Positions 30,841 through 32,793 of a stretch of 64,000 nt of DNA are shown one piece after another (the first letter of the stretch is position 1; each line of letters opens with the position of its first letter). Origin of the DNA: Podarcis pityusensis (lineage: Eukaryota); the NCBI GenBank assembly GCA_964106645.2, contig OZ067038.1. One strand, 5' to 3'. The position numbers and the translations under genes were made by a program. Under the pieces are notes generated by a model. It made no database searches. It had not been told where the DNA came from and worked only from the letters and a program-made list of their open reading frames with translations.

Positions 30841-32793
30841 ATGGCAGCCAACAGCAGCTTCTCGCCATTCAACCCAGCATCTGGAGACTGGGAAGCGTAC
30901 GCCTCCCGTTTCACCTTCCTCCTAGAAGCCAAAGGGGTCACCGACGAAGAAGACGCCAAGAAGAGGGCGATATTCTTCAGCGTCTGCGGAGAGGAGACGT
31001 TTGAAATCGCCCGGGCTCTCCTTGCGCCTGAAGACGTCGCTACTGTTCCATACAAAACAATAATGGAACAGCTGAAGGGGCACTTTTCGCCGCAGCCCTC
31101 AGTGGTGGCTCGTCGAAATGCCTTCTACGCAAAGCGGCAAGCCCCTGGGGAAACCATAACTGGGTTTGTGACCTCTCTCCGCCAAGCCGCCCGGTTCTGC
31201 AACTTCTCAGAGCTGGAGAACATGCTTCGTGACCGCCTCGTCGGTGGCCTGAAGGATGAGAAGCTGCAACGACGCCTCTACGCTAAGAAGGACCTAACGT
31301 TCCAGGTCGCTCTGGAGGAGGCCCTGGCAACAGAAGCTGCCGAGAGGTCGACCCAAGAGGCACGGCCGAGCCTGCCATCCCAACCGAGGGTCCACCATGA
31401 AGACCTCACCGACGACTCAGGATCCGACAGGGAGGAGGTGCACCGAGTACAGCAGCGCACTCAAGCAGCGCACAGACCACAGCTGCCTCGACGAGAAGGA
31501 GGGAACTGCGCAAGCTGCGGGGAGAGTCACGAGAGGAGGACCTGCCGTTTCCGCAACGCAGAGTGCAGGCAGTGCAGAAAATCGGGACACATCGCCCGGG
31601 TGTGTCGGGCTCGGCCCACCCGACACCAGGCATCAGATGACCAATCCAAGAGCCCCAGGTCCCGGGGCCCAACGCACCAAGGCAACTCGACGGAGCTCAC
31701 GGACTTCCAGGTATACCAGTTGCCCCACCCCAACGTAGAGAAAATTTATGTAGAGGTACAGATAGAGGGGGCCCCATGCCGCATGGAGCTTGACACGGGT
31801 TCAACTCTATCCATAATCTCGGCAAGGACCTTAAGGAAACTGTGTCCCACTGGGGGTCCCAAACTCAGGCCGGCCCCATTCACCCTCCGGGACTTCCAGA
31901 AACGTAAGGTCCCCACAATGGGGGTGGGGACCTTCAGGGTGCAATACCGAGGGCGGACGCGGCAACTGGACTTGCTTGTGGTCAAGGGCCCCTACATTAG
32001 CTTACTGGGATTGGCATGGTTTGGACCACTGGGGCTAGCTGTCACCGGGGTGAACCACACTAGCTTACAAGTGGACGTGGACGCCATATGCAAGGAATTT
32101 CCAGGGGTTTTCGATGGGAAATTGGGACAGTATACGGGCCCCCCCATTGCGCTACAGCTTGACCCCGCAGTACGACCGGTCAGGCTCAAGGCCCGCCGGG
32201 TCCCGTTCGCCTTGAAACCCCGTATAGACGAGGAATTGGACCGCCTTCACCCCGATAGAGCTCAGGATGAGGTAGTGGTGGGGGAAGGCAGGAACCCCCG
32301 GACCTTCGAGGCCCAGGACCCAGTGTACGCAAAGAATTTTGGGGCAGGCCCAGCATGGGTACCCGCCACAATCACCAGGGTCACTGGCCCCGTGTCGTAC
32401 GAGGTGCTAACGGATGGGGGGCAATGCTGGCGCCGCCACTGCGACCAGATACGGCGACGATTCCCGGGAGAAAACCAGGAGGAGGACAGGTCAGAGGAGT
32501 CCCAAGGGAACAGCGGGGCAGTGAGGCCCATAGAGCAGGAGGGGCCAGCAGGAGAGGCAGAATCAGTAAATACAGAGAGGACCCGTGAGGCCGAAAGGAC
32601 ACCGGAACCAGAACCACGACTGAGCGAGCCGGTTGCACCAGACCAAACAGCCGCATCACAGCCAGCATCCTTGGAACACGAGCCAGAACCCGGAGCCCGG
32701 ACCAGGGAACACCCCAGGCCACAACGCACACGTAGGCCGCCGGCATACCTTGAGGACTATGAATGCGACCTCCCGGGCAGGACTGGAACTTAG
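30841..32793 (+). CDS. 650-aa Gag-protease fused to a post-integrase C-terminal tail; lacks RT, RNase H and the integrase core
   Basis: Gag motif LRDRLVGGL, knuckles CASCGESHERRTC and CRQCRKSGHIARVC, protease LDTGS and SLLGLAW, RT lead-in ARRVPFALK..EELDRL, then HPD..VYAKNF..WVPATIT..GPVSY..RRHCDQIR. No YxDD motif is present. Confidence 0.93.
   Translation: MAANSSFSPFNPASGDWEAYASRFTFLLEAKGVTDEEDAKKRAIFFSVCGEETFEIARALLAPEDVATVPYKTIMEQLKGHFSPQPSVVARRNAFYAKRQAPGETITGFVTSLRQAARFCNFSELENMLRDRLVGGLKDEKLQRRLYAKKDLTFQVALEEALATEAAERSTQEARPSLPSQPRVHHEDLTDDSGSDREEVHRVQQRTQAAHRPQLPRREGGNCASCGESHERRTCRFRNAECRQCRKSGHIARVCRARPTRHQASDDQSKSPRSRGPTHQGNSTELTDFQVYQLPHPNVEKIYVEVQIEGAPCRMELDTGSTLSIISARTLRKLCPTGGPKLRPAPFTLRDFQKRKVPTMGVGTFRVQYRGRTRQLDLLVVKGPYISLLGLAWFGPLGLAVTGVNHTSLQVDVDAICKEFPGVFDGKLGQYTGPPIALQLDPAVRPVRLKARRVPFALKPRIDEELDRLHPDRAQDEVVVGEGRNPRTFEAQDPVYAKNFGAGPAWVPATITRVTGPVSYEVLTDGGQCWRRHCDQIRRRFPGENQEEDRSEESQGNSGAVRPIEQEGPAGEAESVNTERTREAERTPEPEPRLSEPVAPDQTAASQPASLEHEPEPGARTREHPRPQRTRRPPAYLEDYECDLPGRTGT

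Follow-up and report, generated by a model that had tools for sequence, protein, structure and literature searches.

A Ty3/gypsy retrotransposon copy of Podarcis pityusensis lacking 2,124 bp of pol between two 9-bp repeats

The window analyzed here is a stretch of 64,000 nucleotides from Podarcis pityusensis (contig OZ067038.1), which bears on its plus strand a Ty3/gypsy LTR retrotransposon copy of 2,826 bp at position 30347-33172. A 5-bp target-site duplication (GGGGA) flanks it on the left (30342..30346) and on the right (33173..33177), in agreement with the 5 letters shared in empty-site contigs. The 5' LTR (30347..30715, repeat D1) is 369 bp long with TG...CA ends and shows one mismatch with the 3' LTR (32804..33172, 369 bp). 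The primer binding site (PBS) at 30717..30734 starts with TGGCG and is presumably complementary to the 3' end of tRNA-Ser; exact matches of the LTR end with the PBS number 603 genome-wide, and no tRNA gene was found in the 64-kb window. A polypurine tract (PPT) at 32791..32803 adjoins the 3' LTR, with 1,081 exact PPT/LTR matches genome-wide. The element harbors a single ORF (30841..32793, ATG at 30841) that encodes 650 aa in the order Gag, aspartyl protease (aa 304-394), deletion junction and a part that is C-terminal to the integrase core in the 1358-aa ORF with which it was compared. It contains two CCHC arrays, or zinc knuckles (CX2CX3HX4C at aa 223 and CX2CX4HX4C at aa 242), and is devoid of reverse transcriptase (RT), RNase H and integrase core. 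The 650-aa protein found no match in the PDB. Both LTRs share a 1-bp variant that is also present in other family copies. The window copy is very young, and its sole private substitution is located at 33060, in the 3' LTR, where 26 of the 27 compared copies differ and one alignment fell short of the position.

The LTRs contain approximately three 40-bp tandem units with GATTGG (CCAAT on the other strand) at 30380-30490 and 32837-32947, and LTRs shortened by one such unit, to 330 bp, are frequent in the family. On the plus strand the element is bordered by exon-like stretches whose ends resemble splice sites, at 29441-29750, from 30044 onward and at 33389-33420, so that it may lie within an intron in the sense direction; these putative exons had no match in Pfam. 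Additionally, a very abundant short repeat has several copies in the window (33694-34025, 16410-16548, 8468-8758, and 53785-54109) and resembles, as we take it, the Sauria SINE.

In the genome from which the window derives, 2,042 candidates were obtained, and 20 of the 40 scored places were retrieved. All 20 copies are full-length and each is 2,124 bp longer than the window copy, with an identity to the window of at least 99.3% on each junction side in 19 of them and a single flank alignment at 98.7%. Their ORF measures 1358 aa in 18/20 copies; in one of the others it is cut short by an early stop, and in the last it reaches 1376 aa. Pfam domains were detected in a full-length copy at 304-394 (protease), 502-648 (RVT_1), 712-846 (RNase H), 953-1007 (H2C2) and 1023-1113 (rve), the last four all within the segment that the window copy lacks. 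The first-pass annotation had proposed a loss from RT through integrase between two in-frame stretches encoding LDRL, and RT, RNase H, H2C2 and core are indeed missing in the window copy.

Concerning classification, the parent has the domain order of Ty3/gypsy elements (protease, RT, RNase H, integrase) and, like them, two TG...CA LTRs, PBS, PPT and a short target duplication. The best solved relative of its RT is Ty3 (PDB 4ol8, 7q5b; E-value = 8e-61), while retroviral RTs, under the chain names protease/RT/RNase H, Pr125Pol and p80, follow at 2e-30 or weaker, in a ranking of similarity and not a tree. The nearest named proteins are "K02A2.6-like" Ty3/gypsy elements of Podarcis and Lacerta. 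Such elements (Podarcis, Lacerta, geckos) and Ty3 share the Gag-PR-RT-RNase H-IN order of the parent ORF, and the Podarcis proteins present up to 100% identity on one junction side. The parent may belong to the Mag clade, the label used in the first-pass annotation. The available part of PMC2577118 ascribes to that clade a nucleocapsid region with two CCHC arrays; the arrays found here fit this description, and the feature is also common to other clades. Our literature search, which covered few subscription papers, found neither the family nor the junction described, and the accessible text of one review (PMC12789967) held nothing specific to the window copy.

At the junction itself, the 12-mer ttggaccgcctt begins at 32236 in frame with the ORF from the ATG at 30841, and the 650-aa product reads ...FALKPRIDEELDRLHPDRAQD... 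across it. The in-frame LDRL reported there in the first-pass annotation is thus real. Compared with each of the 20 full-length copies, the window sequence is identical to the 5' site as far as 32243 and to the 3' site from 32235 on, and the exact shared stretch is therefore the 9 bp ATTGGACCG at 32235..32243, after which one mismatch and two matches follow (11/12). This junction is unique in the genome. The 12-mer had been put forward as the junction, and its position and frame hold; the microhomology is 32235-32243 and not the entire 12-mer, the last three bases of which match the 3' site alone as a continuous run. An overlap of about 8-12 bp had been predicted, and 9 bp are present at both breakpoints in 20/20 full-length copies with one copy of the repeat left, the pattern of a microhomology-mediated deletion. 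The missing segment of 2,124 bp corresponds to 708 codons (0 mod 3) and comprises RT, RNase H, and the H2C2 and core of integrase. The repeated LDRL expected of full-length relatives was found at residues 466 and 1174 of the ORF in 19/20 copies, the remaining one stopping early. Random pairs of breakpoints in the ORF overlap by at least 9 bp at a frequency of only 4.75e-5 (19 of 400,000 draws), which argues that the repeat guided the deletion. The LDRL peptide is not special, since the ORF holds 38 repeats of at least 9 bp spaced at least 300 bp apart (32 in codon-shuffled controls) and 14 repeated tetrapeptides, LDRL among them. The best RNA stem between the breakpoints is no better than random, at the 23rd percentile of random pairs.

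A single instance of the junction exists in the 1.5 Gb genome, against intact breakpoints numbering 933 (upstream) and 1,036 (downstream). Whole-genome searches with the exact 42-mer, with a 31-mer allowing up to 3 mismatches and with any other base before the downstream repeat returned the window alone. Allowing any other base after the upstream repeat gave no recurrence either: 71 of the 72 matches end in G and, among 20 of them that were retrieved, the 19 ending in G all continue with upstream-type codons of a second subfamily, which has a synonymous change beside the upstream repeat. Contig C19 carries 18 of the 71 second-subfamily matches, the most of any contig; as a guess, it is possibly a repeat-rich or sex chromosome. 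In four public runs, two of organism A and two of organism B, the insertion site is empty (4/4), with 30341 joined to 33173 and 5 shared letters, and both intact breakpoints are present in the same runs; this check used contigs, and the absence of the junction holds among the contig pieces listed. With one junction genome-wide and an empty site in 4/4 runs, the window copy has not spread. It cannot encode RT, RNase H or catalytic integrase, and it has no offspring in the genome. The suggestion that the same deletion might arise independently in sister families found no support: there is one copy in the genome and, unlike in the window copy, the junction appears in none of the 26 related K02A2.6-like proteins returned (357-1138 aa, a weak coverage). 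One gecko protein has LDRL at both places without the junction.

The family to which the copy belongs appears as a very recent burst, with 1,081 PPT/LTR ends and identical LTRs in 53 of the 68 copies in which both LTRs were parsed. On contig 2, where all 33 listed PBS matches were taken irrespective of their interior, 25/33 copies have the complete 1358-aa ORF. Summed contig depth over the element interior, which is not a copy number, is far higher in the organism A runs than in those of organism B.

We surveyed part of this family for further deletions. From lists of the first 100 matches on contig 1, 92 pairs were formed, 91 at 2,123-2,125 bp, and places that were odd or unpaired were followed up in two rounds (14 and 20). 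Together with contig 2, this partial survey yielded at least 11 other junctions larger than 500 bp, the duplicated L074/L075 being counted once; the count omits deletions below 500 bp, copies split by other DNA and truncations that were not resolved (L056, L061, L062, L070-L073, L079, L081-L084). A single natural copy served as coordinate reference for the overlaps, and for this reason that of L063, of the older subfamily, is uncertain. The seven internal deletions show exact overlaps of 0, 2, 2, 4, 4, 7, and 7 bp, so that 4/7 (window excluded) reach at least 4 bp against an expected 2% (p ~6e-6). Four others cross into one LTR, with overlaps of 0, 0, 1, and 2 bp (L054b, L065, L089, and L100); the contrast with the internal deletions, the window included, gives p = 0.07. 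From these one-LTR-only deletions with 0-2 bp overlap it follows that DNA-level deletion also occurs in the family. In two of them, L065 (G000:C1:123550000-123556500) and L089 (G000:C1:139396100-139401900), exactly 12 bases remain at the end of one LTR; the target duplication is preserved and microhomology is absent. Such retained ends could be ends shielded by integrase (n = 2).

The timing of the losses was approached through LTR divergence. Young copies carry ~1.4 post-insertion substitutions each, as calculated after two mis-parsed rows and the two oldest copies were left out, and kilobase deletions were present in 2 of the 33 PBS-selected copies of contig 2; separately, the copy L054 carries two. 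The resulting rate for young copies is ~0.04 deletions per post-insertion substitution (95% interval 0.007-0.20), well above the human germline, where kilobase deletions run at roughly 0.002 per substitution. The oldest cleanly parsed copies, L076 and L112 (6 and 8 LTR mismatches), have zero kilobase deletions, while clock-like accumulation predicts ~4.4 in the two (P ~0.013); for L112 by itself, the sole one chosen irrespective of internal structure, P is 0.09. Because deletions are frequent among copies with identical LTRs and absent in the two older ones, the family clock test favors a loss around copying rather than later DNA repair. At the window site a single junction was observed and, with an empty site in 4/4 runs, there is no allele to compare it with.

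For the window copy we consider it reasonably probable that RT jumped between the two 9-bp stretches while the copy was made, before integration; the moment of copying and the enzyme are what we infer. A growing minus strand that ends in the downstream ATTGGACCG would anneal anew to the upstream ATTGGACCG, on the same RNA or on another packaged with it, and synthesis would resume there. The shortened DNA would keep both ends, so that enzymes already in the particle could integrate it normally and, the two repeats being in the same codon phase, the frame would stay open as a by-product. The abundance of microhomology at the internal deletions of the family supports such a jump. Large internal deletions of HIV-1 proviruses have been ascribed to reverse-transcription errors via short direct repeats, in the available part of a study in which repeats mark only part of the junctions and host repair also contributes (bioRxiv 10.64898/2026.03.31.715508). 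However, microhomology equally marks DNA-level illegitimate recombination, which counts against an RT jump, and the 4 of 11 other deletions that cross one LTR with 0-2 bp overlap are not readily explained by a jump on the minus strand. The clock test, moreover, compares two old copies against a rate with a wide interval, and the unremarkable RNA pairing between the breakpoints likewise speaks against a jump.

The same appearance of the junction is expected if a full-length copy integrated and 2,124 bp were lost later, by microhomology-mediated end joining or replication slippage, and microhomology at deletions in plant (rice) LTR elements was read as DNA-level illegitimate recombination in the accessible text of PMC1940013. 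L054b, L065, L089, and L100 likewise point to DNA-level events, and the one post-insertion substitution of the window copy indicates that some time has passed since insertion. We nevertheless find a later loss rather doubtful, if quite possible, given the excess of the young-copy deletion rate over the germline figure and the two older copies with none. Confusion in assembly or library preparation, to which a junction seen once in the assembly and an insertion absent from 4/4 other runs might point, is very unlikely to have produced it: the copy has an intact target duplication, the 1-bp variant common to its two LTRs recurs in other copies, and the same bias toward microhomology is seen across the 11 further kilobase junctions of the family, all distinct. 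A 9-bp repeat is also far shorter than the overlaps used by assemblers, which counts against an artefact. Finally, reverse transcription of a spliced gag-type RNA has next to no chance of being the origin, and we reject it. AG stands directly before the downstream repeat (register 0 reads AT..AG), but the 10 possible registers include no GT..AG, GC..AG or AT..AC boundaries, and repeated copies would be expected from a spliced RNA where one was found.

The open frame of the window copy needs no selection. Among the 38 ORF repeats of at least 9 bp, 19 are in frame (46% with shuffled codons, 35% with shuffled bases), so a deletion at such a repeat keeps the frame about half the time without selection, and of the six deletions found to start and end within the ORF, two keep the frame, namely the window copy and L055. 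The caution of the first-pass annotation that an intact ORF does not prove selection is therefore borne out. More generally, an open frame across a retroelement deletion at a 9-bp coding repeat is expected about half the time and is not evidence of domestication. A selected Gag-protease-tail fusion, either a TR-GAG-like non-autonomous element or a domesticated gag gene, would fit the open 650-aa ORF with Gag, both zinc knuckles and protease kept, as well as the intact LTRs, PBS and PPT, and Gag/protease-only families are known in plants (bioRxiv 10.64898/2026.03.01.708851, in the part available). Such a fusion is most improbable here: the single copy genome-wide largely refutes it, the insertion is absent from other animals (4/4 runs), the ORF lacks any private change that could reveal selection, one 9-bp repeat in two is in frame regardless, and two in-frame cases out of six are the chance expectation.

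With regard to known systems, HIV-1 proviruses likewise present kilobase internal losses with intact LTRs at a short direct repeat, and repeats are found at part of the junctions in both cases (~40% in the available portion of bioRxiv 10.64898/2026.03.31.715508; 5/12 with at least 4 bp here). In contrast to HIV-1 as covered there, the window copy is a retrotransposon in an animal genome, has no ORF after pol, and its junction is in frame. Plant LTR retrotransposons also have microhomology flanking sequence deleted inside the element; as far as the accessible text of PMC1940013 goes, those deletions are small and accumulate over time, whereas the ones reported here are of kilobase size and already exist with identical LTRs. 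The closest likeness in anatomy is with TR-GAG elements, which are below 4 kb, have LTRs, PBS and PPT, keep Gag and protease and lack RT, RNase H and integrase core (bioRxiv 10.64898/2026.03.01.708851, available part). The window copy (2,826 bp) shares this anatomy and lacks the amplification, being one unamplified copy genome-wide where TR-GAG are amplified plant families. The same part of that study gives no consistent breakpoint signature, while parent and breakpoints are exactly known for the window copy.

The window copy is thus an ordinary event, one more case of a process that is well known. Taken singly it has little importance, and its value as a clean, verified example is that of a caution and a control. 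More useful than the single copy is its family of ~1,000 near-identical copies with mostly intact ORFs and identical LTRs, a vertebrate material in which the rate and spectrum of deletions present at birth can be measured. Tentatively, and with more doubt than conviction, we suggest that in this family, during a recent burst, several percent of the daughter copies arise with a deletion from the start, along two separable routes, namely microhomology jumps inside the element (as in the window copy) and blunt deletions into one LTR that halt exactly 12 bases before the end, as if integrase-bound ends were shielded (L065, L089). If so, the window copy would show a non-autonomous Gag-protease element at the moment of its birth, with its parent known, and the family would offer a natural record of the errors made when retrotransposons are copied in a vertebrate germline.

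Some of the other deleted copies have features of their own. L058 (G000:C1:74737123) and L064 (G000:C1:114035247) bear independent deletions of 1,033 and 2,865 bp with 3' breakpoints within 1 bp of each other; a breakpoint hotspot was rejected, as just these two copies show it genome-wide. L074 (G000:C1:56167202) and L075 (G000:C1:56178273) represent a TRIM-sized derivative of 931 bp that has lost most of the PBS. They were dismissed as an amplified TRIM because only two copies exist, with the same flanks, within a segmental duplication, which indicates local duplication and not amplification. L055 (G000:C1:49591500-49598000) has an in-frame deletion of 1,935 bp with a 2-bp overlap and, additionally, a 65-bp duplication at the start of its 3' LTR.
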